Source: Planctomycetota bacterium (GTDB lineage Bacteria > Planctomycetota > GCA-002687715 > DRQF01). From it: 18,747 nt of DNA. The notes beneath the pieces are model-generated. The model did not search any database and was not told the DNA's origin. It was given only the letters and a program-made list of their open reading frames with translations. Shown here piece after piece: positions 1 to 18,478 of the stretch (its first letter is position 1; every line of letters begins with the position of its first letter). The DNA is taken from assembly GCA_036479435.1 (NCBI GenBank), contig JAZGFI010000046.1, positions 1 through 18,747 of the forward strand, written 5' to 3'. Position numbers and translations under genes: made by a program.

Positions 1-2
1 TT

Positions 3-1070
3 CGCCGCGAGAATGGTGAGCAGCAAAAAGTTCTCGGAGGCTTTGTCTTCGTGGCGGTAGACATGGTCCGCATGCCAGTTGGTGACGAGGTTGTTGAAGC
101 CTTCGTTCTCAATCGTCCAGCGCTTACGGGCAAGATCGACAAAGGCTGCCACTTCGATATCCTCAGCCGAAAATGAGCTGACCCAAAACCAGTTGAGGCC
201 TTCGACTTGTTCCGTCTTGCCGTCTAATTGACGTTTGATGGTTTTCGTTTCTAGGCAGGATACGACCCGCACTTTGACTTCATGATCCCACCAGCTTGAG
301 CAGCCAGCTAGGTCGCGGATCTGTTGATATCCCTGCTTGATTGGCCGATGAGCCACCGTCCCCTGCACATCCATCAGCAGCTTGGCTTCATGGAGTAGCG
401 TCGGGCAGTTTTCCTTGAGCACGGTGATGACCTGCTTGCCCTTGGCAAGCACGGATTTCCAAAAGCTTTGGCAGCTATAGAGCGCGTCACCTAAAACGAC
501 TTCGTAGGCCCGAGAGAAATTTTTGTGTACCCGTTCGTAGAGCACGAGGGCTGCGGTGATCTCCCCGTCGCTTTGTCGTTGAGGCTCGATGTCCACCATG
601 AAAGTAAAGTCGCGGCCGACAAGGTGAGCGGCGACGTAGCGATGATAGTACTGGGTCCGTGGCCCCGACTTGGTTTCCACCTGCCGTTTCAAACAGCCCT
701 TGCAGCAGCGCAGATAGCTTGTGTGGCTTTCATGGCCGTCAATGACCAAGGCCACTCGATTCTGCGACAAAGGCAAAAAACCCTTGTTGCGCTTCAGCTT
801 GAGAAACACCGACTGCAAAATGCCTCGTAATTCATCGGCGTCTACACCGGACATGACTCTAGCGATCGTGTCGGCACTCGGTGGCTCGCCGCCAAGCCAG
901 CGGAGAGCTGGGGCGCTTAGTTTGCTTTGCTCAAAAGCATGCAGACTCCCCAAGCGCGTCTGCAGCATCAAAAATGCGCTGCGGACGACGCGACCCATCG
1001 GAAAGCTCGGGCCTTTGCGGTGCTCCGTCATGAGATCGAAGTGACCGCTTAAACACCAAAGCTTTTCCAA
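3..1070 (-). CDS. DDE transposase (IS4-like fold; ISNCY/ISAs1-like), cut off by the window edge
   Basis: Not in the ORF track. Manual translation is open from the TAA at 1119-1121 to the window edge: LEKLW...VALVIDGHESH...CCKGCL...YYHRYV...DIEP...GEITAA...VVLGDALYS...VITVLKEN...RKRWTIENEGFNNL...HVYRH. D (IDG), D (GDALY) and E (RWxIEN) form a DDE triad. Start uncertain (TTG 1070 or ATG 1031). Confidence 0.9.
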   Translation of the reverse strand, partial: MEKLWCLSGHFDLMTEHRKGPSFPMGRVVRSAFLMLQTRLGSLHAFEQSKLSAPALRWLGGEPPSADTIARVMSGVDADELRGILQSVFLKLKRNKGFLPLSQNRVALVIDGHESHTSYLRCCKGCLKRQVETKSGPRTQYYHRYVAAHLVGRDFTFMVDIEPQRQSDGEITAALVLYERVHKNFSRAYEVVLGDALYSCQSFWKSVLAKGKQVITVLKENCPTLLHEAKLLMDVQGTVAHRPIKQGYQQIRDLAGCSSWWDHEVKVRVVSCLETKTIKRQLDGKTEQVEGLNWFWVSSFSAEDIEVAAFVDLARKRWTIENEGFNNLVTNWHADHVYRHEDKASENFLLLTILAA

Positions 1071-1108
1071 CGATGAAAAAAGCCGAGGGAGGATGATCCG
1101 ACCTGGGG

Positions 1109-1453
1109 CTATCGAGCGTTAACTCGGTCCAGGTAAAGCAGCCCAATCTCGTCAAGAAGCTTGCGAAGCTCTTGGTAATTGTCGACCCAAGCCAACACCT
1201 CTTCACGCATCGCTTTGGGGACATGGAATTGTTGAGATCGGCCGTCCACGCTGACTTGAATCGCAAGCGATTCATGGCGCTCGTCTTTGACCCAGCACTT
1301 GCAGCCCTTGTTGCCGCATCGGTTGCGGCGAACGAGCGGCGAGCCTCGCAAAAGACCAGACCCTGTGACGAGTTGTTTAATACGCGAGCGAAGCTCGCGT
1401 TCCTGTGCGGACATCGAAGCCCGGGGCATATTGCCTCTTGTTCTTGCATTCAT
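1109..1453 (-). CDS. Small IS-associated protein, DUF6788-like
   Basis: 114 aa with LLRGS...RCGNKGCKC...H motif and a helical C-terminus (EEVLAWVDNYQELRKLLDEI), directly upstream of the transposase. Alternative start at 1429 (AGAGG upstream). Confidence 0.8.
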   Translation of the reverse strand: MNARTRGNMPRASMSAQERELRSRIKQLVTGSGLLRGSPLVRRNRCGNKGCKCWVKDERHESLAIQVSVDGRSQQFHVPKAMREEVLAWVDNYQELRKLLDEIGLLYLDRVNAR

Positions 1454-1596
1454 ATATACTTTCTTACAAGAACTGTATGGAAAATCTAGATCAAAGTGGA
1501 TGCGAATTTGCTTTTTGTCTACGACAAAACAAAAGTCGTTGAAAACGGCCTCGAAATGAGGGTTACGGGAGGTTCGCCTCAGTCACTTTTTCTCGA

Positions 1597-1609
1597 TGCG
1601 GAATCGCTG
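1597..1609 (-). repeat. Candidate terminal inverted repeat of the IS (CAGCGATTCCGCA on the minus strand)
   Basis: Lies at the junction with the interrupted gene. The partner repeat is outside the window, so it cannot be confirmed. Confidence 0.4.
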
Positions 1610-1830
1610 CCTATGGCAGGAGTGGGATGAGCAACCAACTGGTCGTCAAAAGCCTGGCAAGGTTTTCAGGGAATTCAGCGAAACTCGAGCAGAATTGGCT
1701 TGCCGCTCTTCTTCGCCTCCGCCTTCGCGCTGGCAAGGCTCTTGTGCCAAGAACTTCTATCTTGCTGTGCCACCGCCATGAGCGGGATGCTCAACACGAA
1801 GCCCAAGGCCAATGCGCTCGCGATTCTCAT
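1610..1830 (-). pseudogene. 5' part of a secreted thioredoxin-fold (Thioredoxin_7-like) selenoprotein with a UxxUxxC motif, apparently interrupted by the IS
   Basis: Minus strand from ATG 1830 (AGGA 11 nt upstream): MRIASALALGFVLSIPLMAVAQQDRSSWHKSLASAKAEAKKSGKPILLEFR-TGA(1677-1675)-IP-TGA(1668-1666)-KPCQAFDDQLVAHPTPAI, then IS sequence. It has a signal peptide and a W..SL..A..EAKKSGKPILL.F thioredoxin-like segment, and both UGAs fall at the CxxC positions. Confidence 0.8.
1628..1666 (-). promoter_or_regulatory. Candidate bacterial SECIS hairpin(s) after the UxxU codons
   Basis: Hairpin B (1648-1628): UGA-CGACC-[AGUU]-GGUUG-C-UCA, loop 25 nt after the second UGA and 34 nt after the first, with GU at loop positions 2-3. 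Weaker hairpin A (1666-1648): AAAACCU-[UGCC]-AGG-C-UUUU, loop 15 nt after the first UGA. Confidence 0.55.
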
Positions 1831-1952: not shown

Positions 1953-2444
1953 TCAGAACAGAAGCTCTTGAGCGTTCGAAAGGTAGACGAAGTTTGGGGC
2001 GTTGGGAGCCACGACGACCGCTTGGAGAATGACATGAAGGCCCGAGATGATTGACGGCGGAAGTTGCCAAGCAAAAGTTATCCCGCCTAAGGGAAGGGTG
2101 GGCGGACCGAGGAGCACGGTGCTGTCAAAAATGGCAATCGTCGAACCGGACCCGCTGGCGACCCAGGCTCCCGGGGCAGGTCCCATGGCGCTGGTTGGCG
2201 TGTTGAATCGGAGCTCCGCGACCAAAAAGAAGGCGAAACCGATCGGGTTCAGGTTGAGATGGTCAATTTCGACGGTGAGCAAATCGCCGCCGGAAATCGG
2301 TTTCGTATCCGGGAAGAGCGTCGCGACGCCGTTGACGCCAGTCGACAATTGAAGCTCAGGCCCATTGCCCGGAAAAGTCTGCGACACTGCGGGGAAGATC
2401 AAAAATGCTGAGAAGGCCATTGAGTAAATGAGAACGCGGATCAT
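1953..2444 (-). CDS. Secreted hypothetical protein; stand-alone copy of the C-terminal domain of the upstream protein
   Basis: 163 aa, AAGGA RBS, signal peptide (MIRVLIYSMAFSAFLIFPAVSQ). The mature part FPGNGPELQLSTGVNG...GGDLLTV...LQAVVV...LSNAQELLF parallels the C-terminus of the 4171-2467 protein. Confidence 0.8.
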   Translation of the reverse strand: MIRVLIYSMAFSAFLIFPAVSQTFPGNGPELQLSTGVNGVATLFPDTKPISGGDLLTVEIDHLNLNPIGFAFFLVAELRFNTPTSAMGPAPGAWVASGSGSTIAIFDSTVLLGPPTLPLGGITFAWQLPPSIISGLHVILQAVVVAPNAPNFVYLSNAQELLF

Positions 2445-2466
2445 GATTCATTGTCCTTTTTTGGGT

Positions 2467-4171
2467 TTAGAAACGGAGTTCGTGGCCGTCAGAAGCCATG
2501 ACATTGGAGATGACAGTTCCTAACGGCGACGGATTGCAGCATTACGCTGACGCCGGCTGGTAGTGATGGCAAAAGGAAGGAACGCAGGTTGCTGGCTGGC
2601 AGCAGGACGGGAACTCCAAAAAGAGAGTTATCGTCTTGAATGATGACGCCAGCGCTATCGATGTAGATAAAGTTGGGATACATGGCGTGCATGGGCGTGG
2701 GCGTTCCGGTCAGATAGGCGCGAGCAAAAATGAAGAACGGCGAGTTGTTTATCGTCCCGTTTGGCGAGAGAAAGTTCAGGTTCAAGATGTCGCCTGCCTG
2801 AACCGTGGAAAAACCTGAGATGCTTGGAGTCATCGGCGCAGAGTTGATGCCCACATCCATACGGAAGTCCTCGCCGGTTCCCGGGTAGGCCACGCTGGGA
2901 AGAACCGGGACAACGTTGAATGCCAAGGATTGAGAAGTCCCGGCCCCCGGCGTCATGACGGTGATTTGTATCGTCGTTGGGGAAGCGAGATCCGAAGCCA
3001 GCAGAGTGACGCCGAGCGCTGTTGGCCCGACGAAAGTCGTCGTATAGGGGTTATTGTCGACCTGTACGACCGAGTTCGGGCAGAAGCCTGTCCCCAGAAC
3101 CTGAATAGCCGTTGCGGGGGCACCGGCAGTGAGTGTGCTCGGGCTAAACGAAACGATGGAAGCCGGGCCCTGGGGATCGATTGCCAAAGGGACGATGCAG
3201 GATTGAGCGCCAGCCAAGTTGTTGGTGAAAGTGAGCGAGATTGGCCCGCCGCAGGTCGATACTGGACTTCCAGGAATCGTGACATTGAGACCGCCACTAG
3301 CCGAAGGAGTCGAAGTGAGAATCTGGCCGCTCGAATCCATCACGCTCGTACCCGCCCAAAGGCCTATGCCAGTGAAATGGACGACGGATGGATTTGGCGA
3401 CCAGGGAGCAGCGGGCGGTGTGTTCGCCAGAGGGGGCGCACTCAGGACTTGAAGGTCGAGGTTGTAGAACACATTGGGCGGTGTGATCGGCTGATTGTCC
3501 TTAAAAACTACGACGCAATACCAGCCAGGAGTTGTAACGTTGAAACTGATTGCGCCGGATGAGAACAACCCGTTTGCACCTGGAGCGCTCTGGCTGCGGG
3601 TACGCCAGTTCGAGTTTGAGCCCGGATCGAAAAGGCGAAAACGCAGCGCTGTAGTTGCAGCGGAGGTGACGGTCATGGTGAGCTGGTAGGTCCCCGCGAC
3701 CGGGAAGTGCATCTCAAACCCGCGGGCGACGGAACATGGAGACCAAGAGAAGGCGCCTGAATAGGGTGGTGTGTTTCCGGGGCTGGTCGGCCCACCCGTA
3801 GCGTCCATGAATGTTGTGATATTGGCGTGCTTGACTAGTGCGTTACCGCCGCTCGTTGTTTTTGAAGCAGTGCCATTGAGTGGTGCAATGGGGCCCAAAG
3901 CCCCGTTAGCGACCACAAACTCAGTGCGGGTGACACCAGCAGTGGAGCTGGCGGCCCCCATGGTCATCGTTACGTCGGTCGTTGAACCTGCAGCTCGTGC
4001 GATCGCTACGACGTTAAACCTCGGATCAGGGCTGATCGTAAAGGTACCTGTTGTTTGGGTTAGTGTGTCTTTGGGATTGAGGTTGAGTGTTTGCTGAGCG
4101 AGCAAAGGCGACGCCCCGAAACCGAGCGCCAGCGCCAAAATGAGTCCACAAATCTTGCCAAGGCCGTTCAT
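2467..4171 (-). CDS. Secreted beta-rich protein with an IPT/TIG (Ig-like) domain; apparent frameshift near 2524
   Basis: Likely start ATG 4171 (AGGAGACAGGAA upstream; signal peptide MNGLGKICGLILALALGFGASPLLAQ). Thr/Gly/Pro-rich, with an IPT/TIG-like segment SIVSFSPSTLTAGAPATAIQVLGTGF...TTTFVGPTALGVTL. The track ORF stops at 2489, but a shifted frame gives LGTVISNVMASDGHELRF-TAA (2467). Confidence 0.8.
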
Positions 4172-4324
4172 TTCCTGTCTCCTGTCGAGAGGCTTGTATG
4201 CGCTCGACGAGTTCGGTCTCATCGAGAGGGACGGACGCCGCGGCGCCGTTCAAGCTTCCAAGCGACAAGGGGTGGCGAACCCCGTAAGAAATTCCCAGCG
4301 CTTTTTTTGATGGCGGAGTAGGGC

Positions 4325-4810
4325 ATGAAGAACACCGAGTTCAGTTATGGCGAACTCCGGGACATCGCGGTTCAGTGCATGAGTGGCGAAAACTCAGGCT
4401 GGACCTGGACCCCAACCGACGTCGCCAACGAAGTCGTGTTGGGCCTGCTCCACTCTGGCCGAGGACTCTCAGATCTAAGGACTCGTGCCTTCACGAAGAT
4501 GTTGGTGACTCGGGTGGTCATCGATCGAGCGCGGTCCCGCCGGCGCCTCAAAAGAGGAGGCGACCTTAAGCGTGTCGAATTCCATGATCCTCTGGCCACC
4601 GGGGATTGGGAACGACGGGTGCAACTGGACGATGCATTTCGAGAACTCGATAGTCGTGGACATGCTCAGCTGTCGGAAGTCTTGAGCCTGCGCTATCTCG
4701 GCGAGTTAACGGTGAGCGAGGTAGCGAAAGTACTCGGCCTGTCACTCAGCTCGGTCGAGAAGCGCCTACAGATCGGGAAAGCGACTCTGAAGGGACTGCT
4801 GGATGAGTAG
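4325..4810 (+). CDS. ECF-type RNA polymerase sigma factor (planctomycete kinase-associated type)
   Basis: YGELRDIA...TWTPTDVANE (region 2), IDRARSRRRLKRGG, and region 4 HTH VLSLRYLGELTVSEVAKVLGLSLSSVEKRL. GGAG RBS. Overlaps the kinase start by 8 nt. Confidence 0.9.
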   Translation: MKNTEFSYGELRDIAVQCMSGENSGWTWTPTDVANEVVLGLLHSGRGLSDLRTRAFTKMLVTRVVIDRARSRRRLKRGGDLKRVEFHDPLATGDWERRVQLDDAFRELDSRGHAQLSEVLSLRYLGELTVSEVAKVLGLSLSSVEKRLQIGKATLKGLLDE

Positions 4811-7421
4811 CCCCGAGAAAAACTCTCCGAGTCTAGACCCGATTGCGCAGGCCGGTATTCTCGACGGGCTCATCGATCTCAGTTTGGCGGAAGCGCGAGT
4901 CAAAGTGGCTAGCATGCCAATCTCTGACGCCGACCGAAGAGTCCTGGAAGGCATGTTGATTTCGGTGTTTGCGGCTGGCGATGAATCGGCCGAGCGTGAT
5001 GACAGCGGGCCTGTAACGGAGGACCTTCGTGTCGGTCCCTACCGCTGCTTAAGTCTCTTAGGCGAGGGCGGCCAATCACGAGTCTACCTCGCTGAACATC
5101 AAGAAAGTGGGATGCGGGTCGCCCTCAAGGTTCTGCATTTGCGCCGGATCTTAGACCTCGCTCGCTCGCGGTTGCGACGCGAAGCGGACGTTCTTGCGGG
5201 TCTTGATAACTCAAGCATCGCGAAGTTCGTGGAGGTGAACCTCGACGGGGAGCAGCCTTGGTTAGCGATCGAGTACATCGAAGGAGTCAGTTTTGAATCC
5301 GTCGTCGCGAAACCTCCCCAATCTGAGGCGGAACTTCGCGAGCGCATGGCCGTTGTCGCAAGTTGCTGCGAAGCAATGGTCGCTGCCCACACCGCTGGTG
5401 TCGTACATCGGGATCTCAAGCCCGCTAACATCATGCTTCGGGCCAATGGGTCTCCGGTTATCGTCGATTTTGGAATCGCGATCATCCTTGAAGCACAGTC
5501 CGAGAAATTAACCCAGGGTGCTTACGTCGTTGGGACCCATCCCTTCGTTTCTCCAGAAAGGCTAGCGCTGCGGCACCAGACATCGTCGCAAGATGATTTG
5601 TGGTCGCTCGGCGTCGTCTTGCATCAAGCGGTTTTCGGCTGCTTGCCGTTCCATGGGCGTTCTGAAAACGAAGTCATCGACGCTGTCTTGGGCGATCGAC
5701 TTTTCTCTGATGAGATCTGTGCAATGCCGGGCCGAGGCTCCGAGCGCAATCTCATTCGCAAAGCCCTGATGCCAGATCTGCGCGACCGCTATCGATCCGT
5801 TCGCGATTTAGCGGATGATCTTGAACGTTTGAGGCGCGGGGAGTCGATCCTGGCACGTGAGTTTGCGTTCTCCGTGAGGCTTGGCCGATGGGCGCGCCAA
5901 CATGCCATTACTTTGGGATTCGTGTGTTTGATCAGCACCCTTGCCACGCTCGCTGTTGTTTCGATCTCGCGCCAAGCCAATCGTGCCGAGCGCGCCACCG
6001 AGCAAGCCGCGGGTACGCTGAGTGCCGCCTTGCAGATTTCGACGACGGCGCTTGAGCTATACGATGAAGTCAAGGGATCGGCGGCACCGACGCCGAAAAT
6101 TCAGCGCTATGTTGAACAGTTGGATGCCGGAATCGAGGCGCTCGAGTTTGGCGATGCCGAAGGCGTTTACAGCCTGGATCTACGGGCCCGGGTCCTGCGA
6201 GAGCGCGGGAACATTGCGCATCGAAGGGGCCTTTGGCCCGATGCCTATGGCTTTAGAGTTCGTGAGCTCGCATTGCGGAAAGAGGCGCTGCATGGCCGTC
6301 GAGATTTGCGGACCCGCATCGACTATTCGATCGCTTCGGTTTTGGTGGGCGATGCGCTGCGTCGTCTCGGCGACAGAAAGGCAGGATTTGAGCGCTACCG
6401 CCTCTCGATGGAGATTGATCGACAGCTAGCGGAGGACTTCCCCAAGGATGTGGAAGCACTCGACAACCTGAGCCGCAGCCTTCTTCGCCTCAGCGATTTT
6501 CATTGGAATGCGGGTCGCGAATTGGAAGCGATCGAGTTGGCGCTAGACCACCACGCATCCGCACGAGCGCTTTACCGGATCGATCCCAAACGCTCGGCTT
6601 CTCTAGACAACCTCGTGATCAGTAATCTTCAGATCAACAAGTTTCTTCACCAGTGTGAATCAAAGCATGAACTACGGTCGAGGCTTTTCGAACAGACGGC
6701 ACAGTTTCTAAAAGAGCTGCGAGAGAGTGGTGCGTCGAAGGACAGGATCATGAGGCGAGCTTGGGCTTTCGAGCTATCGCTGGCGATATTCGAGCAAACG
6801 CAGGGCAACTTTGAAGCGGCGCGTCTCGCTATTTCGACGCGTCTCGTCTTTTTCAAGAGAAGGCATGAACTCGACCCAGAGCGGAAGGAATACCGTGATG
6901 GAATTCTCGTAGGCTTGGAGAAGCTCATTCAATTGGCCATCTTGCAGAAACGTGGGAGCGAAGCGGCGCGCCTCAATGTGGAGCTTACTTTGATGCTGCA
7001 GTCCATCGAGTCGCGAGCACAAGGACTTGGGGCTGCGCGGCTCAGATTTCTCCTGGACGATGCTGTGGATCGAGGTGATCTTGAGGCCGTCCAACGTTTG
7101 TCGGCAAAGCGACGGAGCATGGCGAAGAAGTTCGCCGAGCCGGACCTCGGCGACCCGCAAGCCCTTGTCGCCGCCGCTCGATACCTGTGGCCAGATCCGA
7201 CCCAGCGTACCCCGGTACTTCGTTTTCTTAGAAGAGCGCTTTCCTCTCCGAAGCCGCTAACGATGTACAACGACCAGTGGGCAGCCAATCGCCTCCTGGA
7301 GATCGGTGATCCAATCGAAGCGAGACAGTATCTGGATCGGGCCGAGGAGCGCCGCGGGCGCGCGCGTGAGATCCTCGAAGGCGCTCTAGAGGTTGGCGAC
7401 CTGTTTCTTTCCCGACCTTGA
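4803..7421 (+). CDS. Hanks-type Ser/Thr protein kinase with a transmembrane helix and C-terminal TPR-like helical repeats
   Basis: LLGEGGQSRVY, VALKVL, HRDLKPANI, DFG, GTHPFVSPE and DLWSLG motifs; hydrophobic AITLGFVCLISTLATLAVVSI; repeats such as VGDALRRLGDRKAGFERYRLSMEIDRQLAEDFP. Confidence 0.93.
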   Translation: MSSPEKNSPSLDPIAQAGILDGLIDLSLAEARVKVASMPISDADRRVLEGMLISVFAAGDESAERDDSGPVTEDLRVGPYRCLSLLGEGGQSRVYLAEHQESGMRVALKVLHLRRILDLARSRLRREADVLAGLDNSSIAKFVEVNLDGEQPWLAIEYIEGVSFESVVAKPPQSEAELRERMAVVASCCEAMVAAHTAGVVHRDLKPANIMLRANGSPVIVDFGIAIILEAQSEKLTQGAYVVGTHPFVSPERLALRHQTSSQDDLWSLGVVLHQAVFGCLPFHGRSENEVIDAVLGDRLFSDEICAMPGRGSERNLIRKALMPDLRDRYRSVRDLADDLERLRRGESILAREFAFSVRLGRWARQHAITLGFVCLISTLATLAVVSISRQANRAERATEQAAGTLSAALQISTTALELYDEVKGSAAPTPKIQRYVEQLDAGIEALEFGDAEGVYSLDLRARVLRERGNIAHRRGLWPDAYGFRVRELALRKEALHGRRDLRTRIDYSIASVLVGDALRRLGDRKAGFERYRLSMEIDRQLAEDFPKDVEALDNLSRSLLRLSDFHWNAGRELEAIELALDHHASARALYRIDPKRSASLDNLVISNLQINKFLHQCESKHELRSRLFEQTAQFLKELRESGASKDRIMRRAWAFELSLAIFEQTQGNFEAARLAISTRLVFFKRRHELDPERKEYRDGILVGLEKLIQLAILQKRGSEAARLNVELTLMLQSIESRAQGLGAARLRFLLDDAVDRGDLEAVQRLSAKRRSMAKKFAEPDLGDPQALVAAARYLWPDPTQRTPVLRFLRRALSSPKPLTMYNDQWAANRLLEIGDPIEARQYLDRAEERRGRAREILEGALEVGDLFLSRP

Positions 7422-8830: not shown

Positions 8831-11800
8831 ATGGGGCAAAAGGACATCGTCGTCAGTGGGGCGCGGACCCACAACCTCGACAATGTCGGGGTGCGGATTC
8901 CCCGCGGCTCGTTGACCACCATTACCGGCGTGTCCGGGTCCGGAAAATCGTCGCTCGCGTTCGACACGATTCACAACGAAGGCCAGCGGCGGTTTTTGGA
9001 GTCTCTGTCGTCCTACGCGCGTCAGTTTTTGGGTCAGATCGAAAAACCCGACGTCGATCACATTGAAGGTCTGTCGCCGACAGTTTCCATTGACCAAAAG
9101 ACCGTTAACCGCAATCCGCGGTCGACGGTGGGCACGGTCACTGAAGTCTACGACTTCATGCGGCTCCTTTTTGCCCGCTTGGGCCAACCGTCTTGTCCCG
9201 ACTGCGGAGAGGAGATCCGTCCCCAAACGGTGGATGAGATCCGCGACGCTCTGCTTACCGAGCGCAAGGGCCACAACCTCATCGTCATGGCGCCGATCGT
9301 TAAGGATCGAAAGGGCGAGTATCGCAAGGAGCTCGAAGACCTTCGGCTTCAAGGTTACGCCCGCGCCCGTATCGACGGGGAACTCAGAAGGCTTGACGAA
9401 GACATTGAGCTGAAGCGCTACGTCCGTCACACCATCGAGATCGTACTAGACCGGATCAAGGCCACGCCGGAAAAGGCGGGGCGGCTGGTGGAATCGCTCG
9501 AGCAAGGGCTTAAACTCGGCGACGGTGTCGTCAACGTTCTGGACGGCGACGAACACATTTCCTTTTCGTCTCGATTTGCCTGCAAAAGCTGCGGCGCGGG
9601 CTTTCCCGAGATTGAGCCGCGGACTTTTTCCTTCAACTCCCCGCACGGCGCCTGCAAACCCTGTGGCGGCATCGGCATCCTTGGTGACGTCGACGAAAAC
9701 CTCATCGTTTCCGATCCGAACAAAAGCCCCAATGAGGGCTGCCTAGATCCGCTGGGTAAGTCCAAGCTTCGGGACTACGGCGGCATCTCTACTTTGTCTC
9801 TGCCGAGTATTGCCAAGCACTTCAAAGTCGACCTCGACAAACCCTGGAAGTCACTACCCAAAAAGTTCAAAGACGCCATCCTCTACGGCAGCGGCGAGAC
9901 CAAGTTGGAAGTTGCTACCTCCTACGAGGGCAAGAGCTGGAAGATGAAGTCGAAGCGCCTGCGCACTTTGGCGGGGATGATCGCGGGCATGCGGAAGTCC
10001 TGGGAAGAGCGTGCCCCCAGCCACATGGCACACTTTTTTACGGACCATCAATGTCGCGATTGCGAAGGCTCACGCGTCGGGAAGCTCGCCCGCTCGGTTA
10101 GTTTTCGCAATAAGAGCATTGCCGACCTCGCGCAGTTGGCCATTGATGATCTGTGCGAGTTTTTCGGCAAGGTCAAGCTCTCCAAGAAGGAAATTGCGAT
10201 CGGCGAGCCGATCTTCAAAGAAATCCACGCGCGGCTCGAGTTCCTAACTGCGGTGGGATTGGGGTACATCCAGCTCGATCGCAGCGCTGCGACTTTATCC
10301 GGAGGCGAATCGCAGAGAATCCGCCTCGCGACCCAAGTCGGCTCGCGATTGAAGGGTATCCTCTACGTTTTGGATGAGCCGAGTATCGGCCTGCATCATC
10401 GCGATAACTTGCGTCTAATCGAAACGCTTAAGGGTCTGCGCGATCTCGGCAACACCGTATTAGTCGTCGAGCACGACCAAGAGATGATGGAGTGCTCCGA
10501 TCACGTTATCGACATTGGCCCTGGCGCGGGGGTTCACGGGGGGCGCATCGTCGGAGAAGGACGGGTCGCGGATCTCATGTCCGCGCCGGAATCCAAAACC
10601 GGAGCTTACCTTTCGGGTGGCCGGGCGATCGCGGTGCCCACTAAGCGCCGGAACGCCAGCCAAGACTACATCGAAGTCAAAGGCGCTTGCGAAAACAACC
10701 TACGCAACATCGACGTCGCCTTTCCGCTTGCCTGCCTCAGCGCGGTGACGGGGGTTTCAGGTTCTGGCAAGAGCACTCTGATCGACAGCATTTTGAAGAA
10801 GGCTTTGGCCCAACATTTTCACGGAGCATTGAGTCGCCCCGGAAAACATCGCCGCATCAATGGCTTGCAGCACATCGACAAAGTCATCGAGATCGACCAA
10901 AGCCCCATCGGGCGAACGCCGCGGTCGAACCCCGCGACCTACACCAAGGTCTTCGACCTTATCCGCGACCTTTTTGCCTTGGTCCCCGACGCCAAGGCGC
11001 GAGGTTACAAAAAGGGTCGCTTTTCCTTCAACGTTACGGGCGGTCGCTGCGAAACCTGTCAAGGGGCGGGCGTGAAGATCGTCTCGATGCAGTTTTTGCC
11101 CGATGTCGCGGTGACTTGCGACGATTGCAACGGGCGGCGTTTTAACGGCGAGACCCTAGAGATTCTCTACCGCGAAAAAAGCATCTACGACGTTTTGGCG
11201 ATGACTTTTGAAGAGGCGGGGGAGTTCTTCGCCAACCACCCGAAGATCGCGCGCATTCTGAATGCGCTCAACGACGTTGGTTTGGGCTACGTGCGACTCG
11301 GGCAACCCGCGACGACCTTGTCGGGCGGTGAAGCCCAGCGCGTCAAGCTTGCCTCGGAGTTGCGGCGCCCGGCGACCGGCAAAACTCTGTACTTGTTGGA
11401 CGAGCCGACAACGGGCTTGCACTTTGAGGACATTGAGCGTTTGATTGCGGCTTTGAACGGCTTGGTCGATTCCGGCAACACCGTCGTCGTTATTGAGCAC
11501 AATCTCGATGTCGTGAAAGTCGCCGACTGGATTGTTGATTTGGGCCCGAAGGGTGGCTCGGGCGGTGGCGAGGTGATCTACGCCGGGCCTTTCGACGGGA
11601 TCTTAAAGAAGAAGAAATCCGCTACCGGGGTGGCACTCGTCGAGCTTTTGAGCCCGCGGAAACGAAAGAAATCCACGGCCAAGCCAAAGGCCATCGAGGA
11701 TCTTTCGGCCGAAGGCAAGATCGTGATCAAAGGCGCGCGGACCCACAATCTTAAGAGCGTTGACGTTGAGATCCCCTCGGGCCAGTTCACCGTGGTGACG

Positions 11801-14674
11801 GGTCCTTCAGGTTCTGGAAAGTCGTCCTTGGCTTTCGACACGATTTTTGCCGAAGGGCAACGTCGCTTTGTAGAGTCCTTGTCGTCTTACGCGCGCCAGT
11901 TTTTGGGTCGACTTGATAAAGCACCCGCCGATGCGATTGAGGGTTTAGGCCCGGCGATTGCGATCAATCAAAAAAACGCGTCTCGCAATCCGCGGTCAAC
12001 CGTCGCCACAACGACTGAAATCTATGACTACCTGCGTTTGCTTTTCGCCCGAGTTGGCAAACCGCACTGCCCGCAGTGTGATCGCGAGTTGTTGTCGTTT
12101 GCTCCCGCGGATGTCTGGAAGAAACTGAGAAAACGCGAGGGTGAAAAAGGCCGTTTGGTCGCCCCCTTGTTCCGTCGCGAGTTTGGCACGCCCTTGCGCC
12201 TCGCCAAGCCCACGGAACTAAAGACCGTAGTGCGCGAGTTGCGCGAAGACGGCTGGGTTCGTGTGCTATTGGATGGCGAGGAGTTTCGTTTGGACGGCAG
12301 CGGCGGGAAGCTCCCGGCCTTGTCGAAGATCAAGAGCGTCGATCTGGTCATTGATCGCATCGCGATCGCTCCCAAGGTTCGAGCGCGGGTGTTGGAAGCG
12401 GTGGAAAGCGCATACGCCGCGGGCCGCGGCATCTGCGCTTGGTTGCCCGCGGGCAGCGATGACGCGGCTAAAGTCGAGTGGTTTACCCGCGAGCGCCTTT
12501 GCGTCGAGCACGGCACCGAGATTGAGCGTGATCTTCCGCCGCGCATGTTCTCATTCAACAGCCTTTTGGGCTCCTGCCCGACTTGCCTCGGGGTCGGGCG
12601 CGTGCGGCGTTGTGATCCCGATCTGTTGATCGACCGGCCAGAACGGGCTCTCCTCAAAGGAGCGATGAACAAAAAGGTCGGTGGCTTCTTCAACCGCCGT
12701 TCTTACTTTCGCAAGGCGCTGAAAGGCCTATCGAAACAAGGCGATTTTGATTTGAACGCGCCTTTTGGCGAATTGTCGGCCACAGCCAAGACCCTGATTC
12801 TCGACGGCTCAAGCGAGAAAGTCCCCTTCAAGCACACCAGCCGGCGCAAGGGCCGCAGCAGCCAATGGGAGATGAATGTCACCTGGCCGGGACTGCGCGG
12901 GTACCTTGAGAAGTGGTTCCATGAGACCGAATCTGAAAACTGGCGAGAAGCCATCACCGAAGTTATGCGCGATGACGACTGCGGCGCTTGCCAGGGCAAA
13001 CGTCTGAAGCCGGTGGCGCTTGCCGTGACGCTGGCAAAAAAGAGCATCTCAGATGTGACGTCGATGACGATCGAGGCCGCGACGAGATTTTTTGCGGGGC
13101 TCAAGTTGAAAGCGTCCGACAAAAAAATTGCCGAGCGTTTGTTGAAGGAAGTTCAGGACCGCCTGAGTTTTTTGAACAAAGTGGGATTGGAGTACCTCAC
13201 CCTAGATCGCAGCGCCGGGACTTTGTCTGGCGGTGAGTCACAACGCATTAGGCTGGCGACGCAAATCGGCAGCCGGCTGTCGGGCGTTATCTACGTCTTG
13301 GACGAGCCGAGCATTGGCCTGCACCAGCGCGATGTCGCGAACTTGCTCACAACTTTGCACGAACTCGTCAAACTCGGGAACACGGTGATCGTTGTCGAAC
13401 ACGATGAAGAAACGATCGAGGCCGCGGATTGGATTGTCGACATCGGGCCGGGTGCTGGACACCACGGGGGCGAGGTCGTCTTCCAAGGGCCTCGGCCTCA
13501 GATTTTGGATCATCCAACGTCTTTGACCGCGGCTTACTTGACCGGGCGTGCCCGCGTCGAGATGCCGCCGAAGCGTCGCTCCGGCAATGGCAAAGAGCTT
13601 CGTATCGACGGGGTCACCACCAATAACTTGAAGGGCATCTCGGTAGGCTTTCCGCTCGGTTGTTTTACCTGCGTGACGGGAGTTAGTGGCAGTGGCAAGA
13701 GCAGTCTCGTGGTGGAGACCTTGGTGCCAGCCTTAGAAAAGACCTTCAACCGCAAAGAATCGGGCCGCAACCGCGCCGCCTACAAAAAGCTCCTCGGCGC
13801 CCGGCATGTCTCGGACATTGTGGTCATCGACCAAGCGTCAATTGGTCGCACCCCCAAATCGAACCCGGCGACGTACACTGGAGTTTTCGACATCATTCGC
13901 GCCGTCTTCGCGAAGAGTCCCCAGGCGAAACTCCGCGGCTACAAGCCGGGGCGCTTTAGCTTCAATGCTCCCGGGGGGCGCTGCGAGGCCTGCTCGGGCC
14001 GGGGGTCCATTAAGATCGAGATGAACTTTCTCGCCGACGTCTGGATTGAGTGTGACGTCTGCCGTGGCCGCCGCTATGACCGCGAGACTCTGCGCGCGAC
14101 CTGGCGAGGCAAAAGTATCGCTGACGTCCTCGAAATGGAAGTGAGCGAAGCCTTGGAATTCTTTGGGAATCACCGGCGGATCGTCGCCGTGCTTTCGACC
14201 TTAGAAGACGTGGGTTTGGGGTACCTAAAACTTGGTCAACCGAGCAACACCCTTTCTGGGGGCGAGGCGCAACGCATCAAGCTGGCGCGCGAATTATCGC
14301 GAAAGCCCCGCGGCGAAGTCCTCTACCTACTCGACGAGCCGACCACCGGATTGCACTTCGACGATGTGGCGAAATTGACCGCGGTGTTGCACCGGCTTGT
14401 GGATGCCGGACACAGCGTCGTTGTCATCGAGCATAATCTCGAGGTTGTAGGTGCCAGTGACCATGTCATCGACTTGGGTCCGGAGGGCGGGGAGGCCGGG
14501 GGCCAAGTCCTCGTCGCCGGAACCCCTGAAGAGTTGATGTCGAGCAAGGCCTCTCATACGGGGCGCTATTTGGCCGCAGCTCAGCGGCGGCGATCTGGCC
14601 GAGGAAAAGTCGCGAAGAAAAAGCGCGGCTTGAGTTCTAAGGAAAAAGGAGCGGAAGATGGGATCCCGGCGTGA
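8831..14674 (+). CDS. uvrA: Excinuclease ABC subunit A, double-length (two fused UvrA units)
   Basis: 1947 aa with four Walker A motifs ([36 protein letters not shown]), four LSGGE signatures, two copies each of [24 protein letters not shown] and IGRTP.SNPATYT, and Zn-finger CxxC pairs in both halves. GGAG RBS. Confidence 0.97.
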
Positions 14675-16457
14675 CGGCCCGCTGATCGTCCAAGGCGACA
14701 AGACGGTTCTTCTCGACGTTCACCACCCCGGTGCCGAAGCGGTGCGCGAGGGTCTGGGATCGTTTGCGGAATTGTTGAAGACTCCCGATCACATGCACAC
14801 CTATCGTATCTCTTCGCTTTCGCTGTGGAACGCGGCGAGTTCGGGCATGAGTTGCCGTGATGTGCTCGATATTTTGGAAAACTACGCGCGCAATCCGATC
14901 TCCAAGGCCATCAAGGCCGAGATCTCTTCGATCATGGATCGATTCGGCCGGCTCATCATGCGACGCCGCGGTGAACACCTCGTCGTCGTGGTATCGGAAG
15001 ATTTGTGGGACGACGTCTGCGCCTTGGCGTCGATCAAAGACCTGGTCGACGAGTTCGACGACGAGAATCGCGAACTTGTCATCGGCGAAGGGGCTCGCGG
15101 AGAGATCAAGCGCGCGCTCACTCGTATGGGCTACCCCGTCGAAGATATGGCGGGATTTGTTGAGGGCGACCATCTCGCTTTGGCCCTATTGACCACGGAC
15201 AACATCGGCGAAGCGGGCGCGTTCAGCCTTCGGCCCTACCAGCGCGCCGCGTCCGAGGCCTTTTACCAAGATGGCGATAGCCGGGGCGGCAGCGGAGTCG
15301 TGGTCTTACCCTGCGGGGCTGGGAAAACTCTTACCGCGATGGCGGTGATGGAGCTTTATCAAACCAAGACCCTCATCTTAACGAACAGCACCACAGCGGT
15401 ACGCCAGTGGGTGCGCGAGCTCTTGGAAAAGACAGATCTAAAAGCTAGTGACGTCGCCGAGTATTCGTCGGAGTCGAAGTCGATCGCGCCCGTCACTGTT
15501 TCGACTTATCAAATGATCACCTACCGTCACAGCAAGACGGAGGGCTTTCCGCATTTCGATGCCTTCATGGCCGTGAACTGGGGCTTGGTGGTTTACGACG
15601 AAGTTCACCTTTTACCCGCCCCAGTGTTTCGCATGACCGCCGAGTTGCAAGCGCGCCGGCGCCTCGGCTTGACGGCCACGCTCATTCGCGAGGACGGTCG
15701 CGAAGACGAGGTCTTTTCTCTAATCGGACCCAAACGCTTCGACATGCCTTGGCGCCGGTTAGAAAAAGGCGGCTACATCGCCGAGGCCAAGATTGTCGAG
15801 ATGCGGGTGCCGCTATCGGGTTCCATCGCCGACACCTACGAACTGGTAGGGAGGCGCGAGCAGTATCGAATCGCGGCTGAAAACGGCTTGAAGCTGCGCG
15901 CCCTGAGGGCGCTTTTGGCTCGGCACCGTGGCGACCGCATCTTGATCATTGGGATGTATCTGCGGCAGCTCGCGAGGATTCGTGCTCTCATCGGGGCGGA
16001 GATCATCACCAGCCGTACCGCCCAAGAAGATCGCGAGCGCCTTTATGCGGACTTCCGCGAGGGGCGCATCACAACCTTGATTGTGTCGAAAGTCGCCAAC
16101 TTCGCGGTGGATCTGCCCGATGCGAACATCGCGATCCAAGTCTCGGGAACATTTGGTTCCCGGCAAGAAGAAGCCCAACGCTTAGGCCGCGTGTTGCGGC
16201 CTAAAAGCCACAATCGCGAGACAGTTTTCTACACCCTCGTTACCGAAGACACGACGGAAATACGATTCGCTGAGAACCGTCGCCTCTTTTTGACCGAACA
16301 GGGCTATGATTACGAGATTGTCGAGGCCCGCCGCGAGTTCGCAGAACTCGACTGGGCGGACAGCAACGACTTGGAACGAGCGGGGATCGAAGAAGAGTTT
16401 GATTCCGCGATCGAAAAGGCACGAGCAAAGTTCGGCGCAGGAGAGAAAAGTCGGTGA
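14658..16457 (+). CDS. xpb: Bacterial XPB/Ssl2-like superfamily 2 DNA helicase
   Basis: PLIVQGDKTVLLDV N-terminus, LRPYQ, GVVVLPCGAGKT, DEVH, LGLTATLIREDG and QVSGTFGSRQEEAQRLGRVLRPK. AAGGAG RBS inside the 3' end of uvrA (17-nt overlap). Confidence 0.95.
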   Translation: MGSRRDGPLIVQGDKTVLLDVHHPGAEAVREGLGSFAELLKTPDHMHTYRISSLSLWNAASSGMSCRDVLDILENYARNPISKAIKAEISSIMDRFGRLIMRRRGEHLVVVVSEDLWDDVCALASIKDLVDEFDDENRELVIGEGARGEIKRALTRMGYPVEDMAGFVEGDHLALALLTTDNIGEAGAFSLRPYQRAASEAFYQDGDSRGGSGVVVLPCGAGKTLTAMAVMELYQTKTLILTNSTTAVRQWVRELLEKTDLKASDVAEYSSESKSIAPVTVSTYQMITYRHSKTEGFPHFDAFMAVNWGLVVYDEVHLLPAPVFRMTAELQARRRLGLTATLIREDGREDEVFSLIGPKRFDMPWRRLEKGGYIAEAKIVEMRVPLSGSIADTYELVGRREQYRIAAENGLKLRALRALLARHRGDRILIIGMYLRQLARIRALIGAEIITSRTAQEDRERLYADFREGRITTLIVSKVANFAVDLPDANIAIQVSGTFGSRQEEAQRLGRVLRPKSHNRETVFYTLVTEDTTEIRFAENRRLFLTEQGYDYEIVEARREFAELDWADSNDLERAGIEEEFDSAIEKARAKFGAGEKSR

Positions 16458-18478
16458 AGATTGACTTGGCATTGACCCACTGGGAAGGCAAGGAACTGGA
16501 ATCCGTCATGGAGTTCTGGTTGGAGAACCGCCACGAGTGGCCTTTGGGGGACGGCGCGCGCCGCGAAGCCCTCATTGTGCGCATGCAAGATCAGAAGGTC
16601 GTCGAGGATAAACTCGAGGAGCTCCCGGCTCGGCTTCGCGATCTTCTACGGTTCTCCATCGACGTCTTCGACTGGAGAAAGCCCTTCGACCTGGACACAG
16701 TGGACCCCACTGAGATGCCGATCGAGGCCTTCGAAATCGCTCCGGTTACCCAGGCTCTCATTGATCGCGGATACTTTTTGCCGCGGCGCTTGCGAGGCGC
16801 GCGCAAGCCCACCGCTTTCTCCATTCCCAGCGAACTCGCTGAGGCTTTGTGCGCGGTATTTGAGCTCGGTCGTCGCCCGGCCGAGGCCTCGCTTTCGCTC
16901 ACTCTTTACTTGCGAAGCCTCGACCGTCAGACCGTTCAAACTCGACTCTCCGCCTTAGGCCTCGAAAGCTATCGAGGCCGCCCCCGCGCCGAGTTGCGCG
17001 AGGAACTGCTGAAACCGGTCTCGATCCGTGCGCGCTTGGATGGGCTAGCAGACCAAGAGTTCGCCGAGCTCATCGCCGCCGTCGACGATCACGGCGGGGT
17101 CTTGGACAGTTCAACGCGCAAGCGACTGGGCCACGATTTTTCTGCCGATGAGTGTCGAGCTTTCGGAGTCATGCTCGAAGAAGCTTTGCTCGGTTCTTTT
17201 GAAGCGAGTCAACTCGCCAATCAAGGCGTCCAAGTCGGTGACGGTTGGCTTTTGCTCTTTCGAGAGGTCGCCGACGAACTGCTTGAGGAGCTCAGCGTCG
17301 ACGAGGGGCTCGCCGAAGAGGGGATGCGTACCGGCGCCGATGGTTTCGCGGATTTGCGCGGCATTGCTCGCTCCTTAGAAGAGACCCCCTTCAAGATCAA
17401 AAAGAACGGCGACTACTACAAAAACGCGGTCAAGCGCGTGGCCAAAGAGGCCCTATCTCCCGCCGCGCGTCCGCACGGCGAAGAAGAAGACCTACTCTTT
17501 TATCTCAACCTGATGCAGCGGCTCGAGTTCGTGAAGGTGACCCCCGCGGCACAACTTGAACTCACCGCGAACTGGCGCAGTTGGCAAAAACAAACCGCCG
17601 TTGAGCGTGGCGAAGACTTGCTTTCTTTTTGTCGGCGGCGCGGCAAAGAACCCATTTCGTCCCTGCACATCAGCATCTTGCGGCGCAATTTCTTCAACTA
17701 TCTAAAGCGCAGCGGCTTCGAGACTTGGCTCCCCATCGAGCGGGTGACTTTCATCGCGCGCAACGAGTACCTGCGAGAATGCGTGCGACCCGAGCACGTC
17801 CTGAAGTACCAAGACCGCCACAAGCGCCTGCCGTTTCCGCCGCTCGCATCGCCCGATGACATGCGCCGCGCCATCGAGCCCTGGATTGTCGCAACCCCCG
17901 CTCGCTTAGGCATCGTCGAACTCGCCTACCGCGACGGCGAAAAGCGCCCCTTCGCGGTGCGCCTCAGCCGCTTCGGCGCGAAACTGTTGGGATTGAAAGT
18001 CAAAGACCGCCCCGCGGGCGGGGCAGGTCTGGTGCTGAACTCAGACTACGAGATCATCCTTTTTCCCGAGAACGCGGGCTTCGAAGTGATCCAAGAAGTC
18101 GGCCGCTTCGCCGAACGCGTGAAGGCGGACTACGCCATTCACTTTGTGCTCACCCGCGAATCCGTCCAGGCCGCCGCCGCCGCCGGATTTGGCGAAGACG
18201 AAATCCTCAAACTCCTCGAAAGCCACGCCTCGCACGGCGTGCCAAAGAACGTCGTCTACTCGATCAAAGAATGGTGCCGCAAAACCGTGCGCCTCAAGAC
18301 CACCCGCGTCTACTTGTTGGAAGCCCCCGACGCCGCCACCGCCACGCGCCTCGCAGCGACCCCCGAACTAAAGAAACTCGTCTCAAGACGCCTCGGCGAA
18401 ACCGTCTTAGAACTCAACGAAGACCCCGCCGCCTCCGGCCTCGCCTCCGTCCTCCGCGAACGCGGCTTTTATCTCTGA
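16454..18478 (+). CDS. XPB-associated protein with a C-terminal helicase-associated (Helicase_C_3/XPB N-terminal-like) domain
   Basis: 674 aa; GTG start overlaps the XPB stop (GTGA), AGGAG RBS. The C-terminal LVLNSDYEIILFP...RFAE...FVLTRESVQAA...ILKLLESHASHGVPKNVVYSIKEW resembles the XPB N-terminal domain (LIVQGDKTVLL...SFAE...YRISSLSLWNAA...VLDILENYARNPI). No Walker motifs seen. Confidence 0.8.
   Translation: MKIDLALTHWEGKELESVMEFWLENRHEWPLGDGARREALIVRMQDQKVVEDKLEELPARLRDLLRFSIDVFDWRKPFDLDTVDPTEMPIEAFEIAPVTQALIDRGYFLPRRLRGARKPTAFSIPSELAEALCAVFELGRRPAEASLSLTLYLRSLDRQTVQTRLSALGLESYRGRPRAELREELLKPVSIRARLDGLADQEFAELIAAVDDHGGVLDSSTRKRLGHDFSADECRAFGVMLEEALLGSFEASQLANQGVQVGDGWLLLFREVADELLEELSVDEGLAEEGMRTGADGFADLRGIARSLEETPFKIKKNGDYYKNAVKRVAKEALSPAARPHGEEEDLLFYLNLMQRLEFVKVTPAAQLELTANWRSWQKQTAVERGEDLLSFCRRRGKEPISSLHISILRRNFFNYLKRSGFETWLPIERVTFIARNEYLRECVRPEHVLKYQDRHKRLPFPPLASPDDMRRAIEPWIVATPARLGIVELAYRDGEKRPFAVRLSRFGAKLLGLKVKDRPAGGAGLVLNSDYEIILFPENAGFEVIQEVGRFAERVKADYAIHFVLTRESVQAAAAAGFGEDEILKLLESHASHGVPKNVVYSIKEWCRKTVRLKTTRVYLLEAPDAATATRLAATPELKKLVSRRLGETVLELNEDPAASGLASVLRERGFYL

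Follow-up and report, generated by a model that had tools for sequence, protein, structure and literature searches.

To our knowledge, bacterial proteins with two selenocysteine (Sec) residues in one redox loop have been catalogued for only a few small families, and one protein with such a loop, SelL, is said to form a diselenide. In the account given in PMC2398784, SelL/Prx-like 2 comes from marine bacteria in the GOS data and has two Sec residues two residues apart in the redox loop of a thioredoxin-superfamily protein, as does the gene described here, but it is peroxiredoxin-like, with low similarity to pfam04592. In the Trx7/PDZ proteins treated here, unlike SelL, the extra Sec position lies upstream of the canonical CxxC and is followed by a third Cys. 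The UXXU variants of the Group 4 [NiFe] hydrogenases, as presented in PMC13582414, are also alike in that two UGA codons 9 nt apart are followed by a conserved bacterial SECIS, and in that CXXU/UXXU transitions take place within one family, as they do in Trx7/PDZ. In that account the UXXU residues of the hydrogenases are Ni ligands and the SECIS architecture is the same in both types, whereas in Trx7/PDZ genes with the second UGA an extra hairpin is usually present as well.

The closest described family is NF041199 (NCBIfam, Trx7/PDZ (seleno)protein), which shares with the gene studied here the Trx_7 domain, two PDZ domains and the FR-C/U-xx-C/U-xx-C motif. It was first described as 'Putative secreted serine protease MucD', a CxxU family of 2 sequences, in the GOS selenoproteome (PMC2398784), and Table 1 of a 2026 review gives it as 'CxxU, 1 Sec' (PMC13188914). 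The family, its fold and its use of Sec are already known. The copy found in the window (the whole stretch of DNA analysed, 18,747 nucleotides from a Planctomycetota bacterium) differs from the family as it is catalogued in those entries in that the first Cys is also Sec, and it is split by an insertion sequence (IS). The UxxU form of NF041199 was not found in the searchable literature, as distinct from subscription journals, NCBIfam curator notes and the GOS supplements, where it may be recorded. The locus as a whole is very probably a Trx7/PDZ gene of the UxxU selenoprotein type, in which both UGA codons encode Sec, with a redox role and split here by the IS.

A Trx7/PDZ gene split by an insertion sequence

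The preliminary description had proposed the start of a secreted thioredoxin-fold protein with UGAs at codons 52 and 55 and a Cys at codon 58. The same peptide was obtained by translation of the minus strand from 1830 to 1400 with TGA read through. The frame begins with an ATG at 1830 and reaches codon 73 at 1612 (codons 1-73, 1612..1830, minus strand), and it encodes a signal-peptide-like N-terminus and the first half of a Thioredoxin_7 domain. The signal-like character was judged by eye (MR, a hydrophobic run and then AVAQ-Q). The domain was recognized by Pfam (PF13899) over residues 28-70 of the fragment with an E-value of 4.6e-11 and 43.1 bits (cut-off 27), and the FR-[C/U]-x-x-[C/U]-x-x-C loop is present in it. 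The first UGA, codon 52 (1675..1677, minus strand), occupies the first candidate Sec position, an extra residue upstream of the canonical CxxC; the second, codon 55 (1666..1668, minus strand), takes the place, in alignment, of the N-terminal Cys in the CxxC of thioredoxins, and the TGC at codon 58 (1657..1659, minus strand) provides the third Cys of U-x-x-U-x-x-C. Thioredox_DsbH was also matched, together with NiFe_hyd_3_EhaA at chance level (E 0.076), and no peroxiredoxin-like family was matched by the fragment in Pfam, which leaves it outside SelL/Prx-like 2. That the gene escapes the ORF track was correctly foreseen, since with table 11 the window yields here just a 51-aa ORF (1675..1830, minus strand). 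Two further ORFs of 163 aa and 577 aa lie upstream of the gene on the same strand (1953-4222, minus strand), both with signal-like starts; no Pfam match was found for either of them.

The protein-like frame stops at codon 73/74 because the end of the IS abuts it at 1609/1610. Positions 1..1609 of the window are the right-hand 1609 bp of a 1950-bp IS, within which the contig starts, and are 95% identical to C103:221085-222695, part of the full copy at C103:220746-222695 on another contig of the same assembly. The ORFs of the IS in the window encode a DDE_Tnp_1 transposase (3-1070, minus strand) and a DUF6788 protein (1109-1453, minus strand), according to Pfam. Next to the IS lies its 9-bp target-site duplication (1610..1618), and the same 9 bases occur at C56:126-134. 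The preliminary description expected the rest of the gene beyond the other end of the IS, and it was located there: on C56, which flanks a left end of the IS, the 9 shared bases are followed by an in-frame continuation of the protein of 342 codons up to the stop. The rejoined gene has 415 codons (73 in the window plus 342 on C56), with a frame that is otherwise open.

The assignment to the Trx7/PDZ type in the preliminary description was borne out by both halves. NF041199 is matched by the window fragment at profile positions 2-45 (59.2 bits) and by the C56 half at positions 51-389 of 390 (291.3 bits). The halves were scored separately; each one stays below the family cut-off of 300, and their simple sum of 350.5 is above it. 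The C56 half contains PDZ_6 and PDZ_2 domains (Pfam) and the sequence CVHCH, and the motif FRCxPCxxCxxFD, also given in the preliminary description, was seen in relatives. The CxxCH motif, which is a haem c attachment signature, is present on C56 (L027:133-1158). The intact gene of about 415 codons would thus encode an exported Trx7/PDZ (seleno)protein of NF041199, with the predicted order signal peptide, DsbD-gamma/Trx_7-type domain, short helical linker with the invariant CxxCH, and two PDZ domains.

The IS is abundant in this genome. The final 125 bp of the element (some 80 in a single instance) were found at 13 further places besides C103, 12 of them contig ends, and its left end is repeated at about 14 further contig ends, as seen with the C103 copy as query. 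The depth of the IS contig was about 19-32 times that of the flanks in four public runs, which corresponds to roughly 20-30 copies, and the element breaks the assembly at the 12 contig ends with its right end and at the about 14 with its left end. Position 1526 of the window, which is an A, was a G in all four runs.

The gene is inactivated in this organism, with a 1.95-kb IS after codon 73, and the full protein cannot be made. No uninterrupted gene junction was found in the assembly, which is 92% complete and in which no second copy of the family was found at E ≤ 1e-20. An intact allele was not seen either in the contigs of the four public runs (three studies), although rare variants are lost from contigs and the assembly may itself derive from two of these runs; an intact allele may therefore be present in the organism as a minority variant that the contigs have missed. 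In all four runs the gene-side contig stops 29 nt inside the end of the IS, and no loose contig end leading into the rest of the gene was found in them. The rejoined reading keeps 6 of the 6 invariant and 16 of the 19 nearly invariant residues of the family and has no other defect. Hence, the insertion looks recent and the gene was probably functional until it took place. For this organism the point is a smaller one: a single copy of the family was found, and one member of an IS present about 20-30 times has destroyed it.

Cysteine and TGA states across the phylum

A scan of 401 genomes of the phylum with NF041199 gave a match in 137 of them, and the counts that follow come from the best 150 of 183 hits. 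Two TGAs were present in 73 of these 150 hits, one TGA in 44 and none in 33. All 73 of the two-TGA genes, 40 of the 44 one-TGA genes and 20 of the 33 genes without TGA were retrieved, 133 homologues altogether, and the state at codons 52 and 55 followed the class without exception: U-x-x-U in 73/73, C-x-x-U in 40/40 and C-x-x-C in 20/20. The column of codon 52 holds TGA in 73 of the 133 homologues and Cys in 60, whereas that of codon 55 holds TGA in 113 and Cys in 20, and nothing else than Cys or TGA occurs in either column. The tabulation proposed in the preliminary description thus returned CxxC, CxxU and UxxU and no other residues, and its statement that two independent nonsense mutations are unlikely was upheld, chance being excluded by these columns. 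Its remark that UxxU sites are rare does not hold for this family, in which UxxU is the commonest state of the phylum sample (73 of the best 150 hits). The UxxU state, traced on a tree of 134 proteins, must have changed at least 20 times, and well-supported branches force 13 of these changes.

The sel genes to which the preliminary description had referred are present in this genome, where selA (526 bits), selB (357 bits) and selD (372 bits) were detected together with one tRNA-Sec. The tRNA-Sec, selD and selA adjoin on C117:33644-36236 (minus strand), whereas selB stands apart at C237:11306-13195. The selD gene has an in-frame TGA of its own, in a G-G-U-A-A-K site. TGA is also the commonest stop of the genome, ending 800 of 1792 frames of at least 400 aa. 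Across the 118 genomes behind the best 150 hits, selA was found in 90 of the 93 with a TGA form, as against 9 of the 25 with Cys forms alone. The three TGA-form genomes in which selA was not found (G164, G256 and G340) are all drafts, 67-92% complete.

Both TGAs are almost certainly selenocysteine codons, judging from the sel genes and the tRNA-Sec, the Cys or TGA columns in 133/133 homologues, the presence of selA in 90/93 genomes and a SECIS-like hairpin downstream. In one phylum, roughly half of the members of a known family appear to use UxxU, as counted among the best 150 hits. Selenol/selenol, Sec/Cys and Cys/Cys pairs become comparable in one scaffold, with three natural states and frequent switching, and the decoding of two UGAs only nine bases apart by the bacterial SelB/SECIS system becomes a testable question.

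Two other genes of this genome encode Trx_7-type proteins with in-frame TGAs. One (C274:3989-5113, minus strand) is a second exported Trx_7 selenoprotein gene, a paralogue of the VPGUxxT type; it has one in-frame TGA in VPG-U-KTC and another in an MsrA-like G-M-S-U-Y-W. The VPGUxxT (seleno)proteins (NF041383/NF041382) resemble the split gene in being exported and of the Trx_7 type, and they occur in the same genome and phylum; they differ in the motif VPG-U-xx-C/T, in a single Sec in the Trx loop and in having no PDZ domain. The fragment of the window scores 30.6 bits against NF041383, far below its cut-off of 275 bits. The other (C289:38436-38627, minus strand) is a third gene of the Trx_7-like kind, in which a single in-frame TGA (A-Y-U-G-T-F-C) is combined with a long tail of helical repeats.

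Hairpins downstream of the two UGA codons

Folding of the region downstream of the UGAs gave a main hairpin, H2, at 1628..1648 (minus strand), which is SECIS-like and has 8 pairs, one bulge and the apical loop AGUU at 1637-1640. The distance to this loop is 34 nt from the first UGA (UGA1) and 25 nt from the second (UGA2), and the minimum free energy (MFE) of the hairpin is -7.3 kcal/mol. In the bacterial SECIS model set out in section 5 of PMC13188914, the apical loop has 3-9 nt with a G within its first two nucleotides, the distance from the UGA is 16-37 nt and the MFE is -7.5 kcal/mol or lower. By that section's figures, the loop and both spacings of H2 fit and its MFE is 0.2 kcal/mol short of the limit. 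Among the homologues, H2 reaches -7.5 kcal/mol or lower in 68 of the 74 UxxU rows, 33 of the 40 CxxU rows and 3 of the 20 Cys rows, with GGU or AGUU loops. Both UGAs would be decoded by SelB and the tRNA-Sec with the aid of H2.

Between UGA2 and H2 lies a second region able to pair, H1 (1649..1665, minus strand), whose loop in most UxxU genes falls on the codon of the third Cys, 16 nt after UGA1. In the window the TGC of codon 58 is likewise in the H1 loop, and the hairpin is a weak 3-bp stem with A/U pairs; its MFE of -1.0 kcal/mol (18 nt) or -2.1 kcal/mol (23 nt), against a mean of -5.55 for the 74 UxxU rows, places it among the 9 weakest of the 74. The pair counts of H1 and H2 in a fixed register show compensatory changes; these counts understate both hairpins, the registers of the subfamilies being shifted, and folding of each sequence was relied on instead.

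One question is whether H2 alone directs Sec insertion at UGA1 and UGA2, H1 being a by-product of the encoded residues or of shared descent. This is plausible without being probable. The spacings of 34 and 25 nt are both within the 16-37 nt of the published model, and a single SECIS for two such codons has been proposed, in the account of PMC13582414, for the UXXU hydrogenases. The stability of H2 did not differ between UxxU and CxxU sister clades either (7 contrasts against 5, p 0.47); for H2 and Sec status just 3 independent pairs were available, too few for a test. Moreover, a stable H1 is missing in 9 of the 74 UxxU genes, that of the window included, and is present in 11 of the 40 CxxU genes. 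Against a by-product stands the distribution of H1, which has an MFE of -3 kcal/mol or lower in 65/74 UxxU rows but only in 11/40 CxxU and 2/20 Cys rows. Of 12 sister-clade contrasts, 10 had the more stable H1 on the side of UxxU (Wilcoxon p 0.035), and the hairpin occurs in three registers with differing sequences, each of them placed around the Cys58 codon.

With kinship taken into account, the link between H1 and UxxU in these alignments appears moderate. In an independent-pairs test, 7.9 of 14 pairs went the same way, 1.5 the opposite way and 4.6 showed no difference, with a median p of 0.07 at the threshold of -3 and of 0.29 at -4. With somewhat less than even confidence we propose that the two UGAs may be decoded by two tandem SECIS elements, H1, 16 nt after UGA1, serving UGA1 and H2, 25 nt after UGA2, serving UGA2, and that Trx7/PDZ may be the most widespread bacterial UxxU diselenide-type oxidoreductase. 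If the tandem arrangement were true, the genes would have a one-SECIS-per-codon architecture that evolved repeatedly (at least 13 supported CxxU/UxxU switches).

Fold and putative role of the protein

An AF2 model (pLDDT 96.0, pTM 0.92) was made of the closest UxxU relative of full length, which shares 49% identity with the rejoined reading. The best structural match of model residues 1-124, obtained with VIA-align, was 3f9u_B, a Trx_7-type cytochrome c biogenesis domain (Z 10.4, rmsd 2.2, 114 aligned). The DsbD-gamma domain 1vrs_D (Z 7.6, rmsd 2.5, 104 aligned) and DsbH, 2ju5 (Z 8.7, rmsd 2.6, 109 aligned), were also matched; these three proteins differ from the model in having a plain CxxC and neither PDZ domains nor Sec. 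The C-terminal half matches the PDZ domains of HtrA/DegQ in structural alignment, and the old 'serine protease' name is accounted for by this likeness, although the protein contains no protease domain. In a Foldseek search of the PDB with the model, the top matches listed were PDZ-bearing proteins (HtrA/DegP/DegQ, RseP) and were uninformative for the Trx part.

The two UGAs had been taken for the CxxC catalytic pair itself. This stood as far as both fall on columns that are always Cys or Sec, and gave way in that the canonical CxxC was placed on U55/C58 by a phmmer search of the PDB with the fragment, a weak alignment (E about 0.5) according to which U52 is an extra upstream residue. The third Cys is replaced in 9/73 UxxU and 4/40 CxxU genes (0/20 Cys genes), and its position is Gly in all three verrucomicrobial Cys forms that were looked at. 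As columns 52 and 55 are always Cys or Sec and the third Cys is replaceable, the first two positions are the constant pair. The active-site loop would be U52-x-x-U55-x-x-C58, with both UGAs as Sec codons and positions 52 and 55, the sole two never held by a residue other than Cys or Sec, as the redox pair, possibly joined as a diselenide in the UxxU form, while the PDZ domains might hold client proteins. The intact protein is most likely a putative periplasmic or exported selenol/thiol oxidoreductase, a role suggested by the modelled fold and the motif.

In the linker that joins the Trx domain to the first PDZ domain stands C-x-x-C-H (usually C-x-H-C-H), which is invariant in all 133 relatives. 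The Sec/Cys pair might belong to a metal- or haem-linked site, either with positions 52/55 and CxxCH binding a metal or with CxxCH carrying a covalent haem serviced by the Sec pair. We regard this as unlikely, although C155, C158 and H159 (numbered as in the modelled relative) do not vary among the 133 sequences and are better kept than the third Cys, a putative metal-binding protein stands among the bacterial UxxU families in Table 1 of PMC13188914, and MamP, which combines PDZ with CxxCH, was among the structural matches (4jj0_A, Z 8.8, rmsd 5.9, 89 aligned). The N-terminal domain has, however, the regular fold of a thioredoxin, with domains of thiol:disulfide oxidoreductases as its best matches, and no cytochrome or metal-site family was matched by the fragment or the C56 half in Pfam or NCBIfam.

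The oxidoreductase reading presupposes that the UGAs are translated as Sec. They might instead be read as Cys by a tRNA-ReC-like Cys-tRNA, a caveat raised for UXXU motifs in PMC13582414, or be avoided by a translation start downstream, as the public records would have it: among the best 120 public matches listed, most are proteins of 324-358 aa that start after the TGAs, under the names PDZ domain-containing protein, serine protease Do or hypothetical protein. Of five public proteins that were retrieved, three were full-length (580-617 aa), and all of these were Cys forms. Either kind of non-Sec reading is very improbable here. A single tRNA with the anticodon UCA was found in the genome; it scores as tRNA-Sec (Rfam 67 bits, cut-off 47; also found by aragorn), and the next Rfam matches fall below that cut-off. 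The TGA forms track selA, the region before the TGAs is conserved within the family profile, with a signal peptide and half of the Trx fold, and a downstream start would leave an unexported half-domain. As the public gene calls mostly start behind the TGAs, the UxxU form is hidden and the active site is missing from those records. That a decaying gene has acquired the two TGAs as ordinary nonsense mutations is scarcely credible, even though disruption of the gene by the IS is certain here and its hairpins are weaker than those of its relatives, given the same two TGAs in the same columns of 73 other genes from 62 genomes, the at least 13 well-supported state changes on the tree and a frame otherwise open over 415 codons with 6/6 invariant residues kept.

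The remainder of the window holds genes of other kinds. At 4325-7421 (plus strand) the gene of an ECF sigma factor shares an overlap with the beginning of one that encodes a Ser/Thr protein kinase of 872 aa, which has a long C-terminal helical part. The region 8831-18478 (plus strand) begins with a 1947-aa ORF in which the UvrA signatures are doubled (UvrA_inter, UvrA DNA-binding and ABC stretches, each matched twice). After it come an XPB/ERCC3-like helicase of 599 aa and a protein of 674 aa that shares the Helicase_C_3 domain with the helicase.
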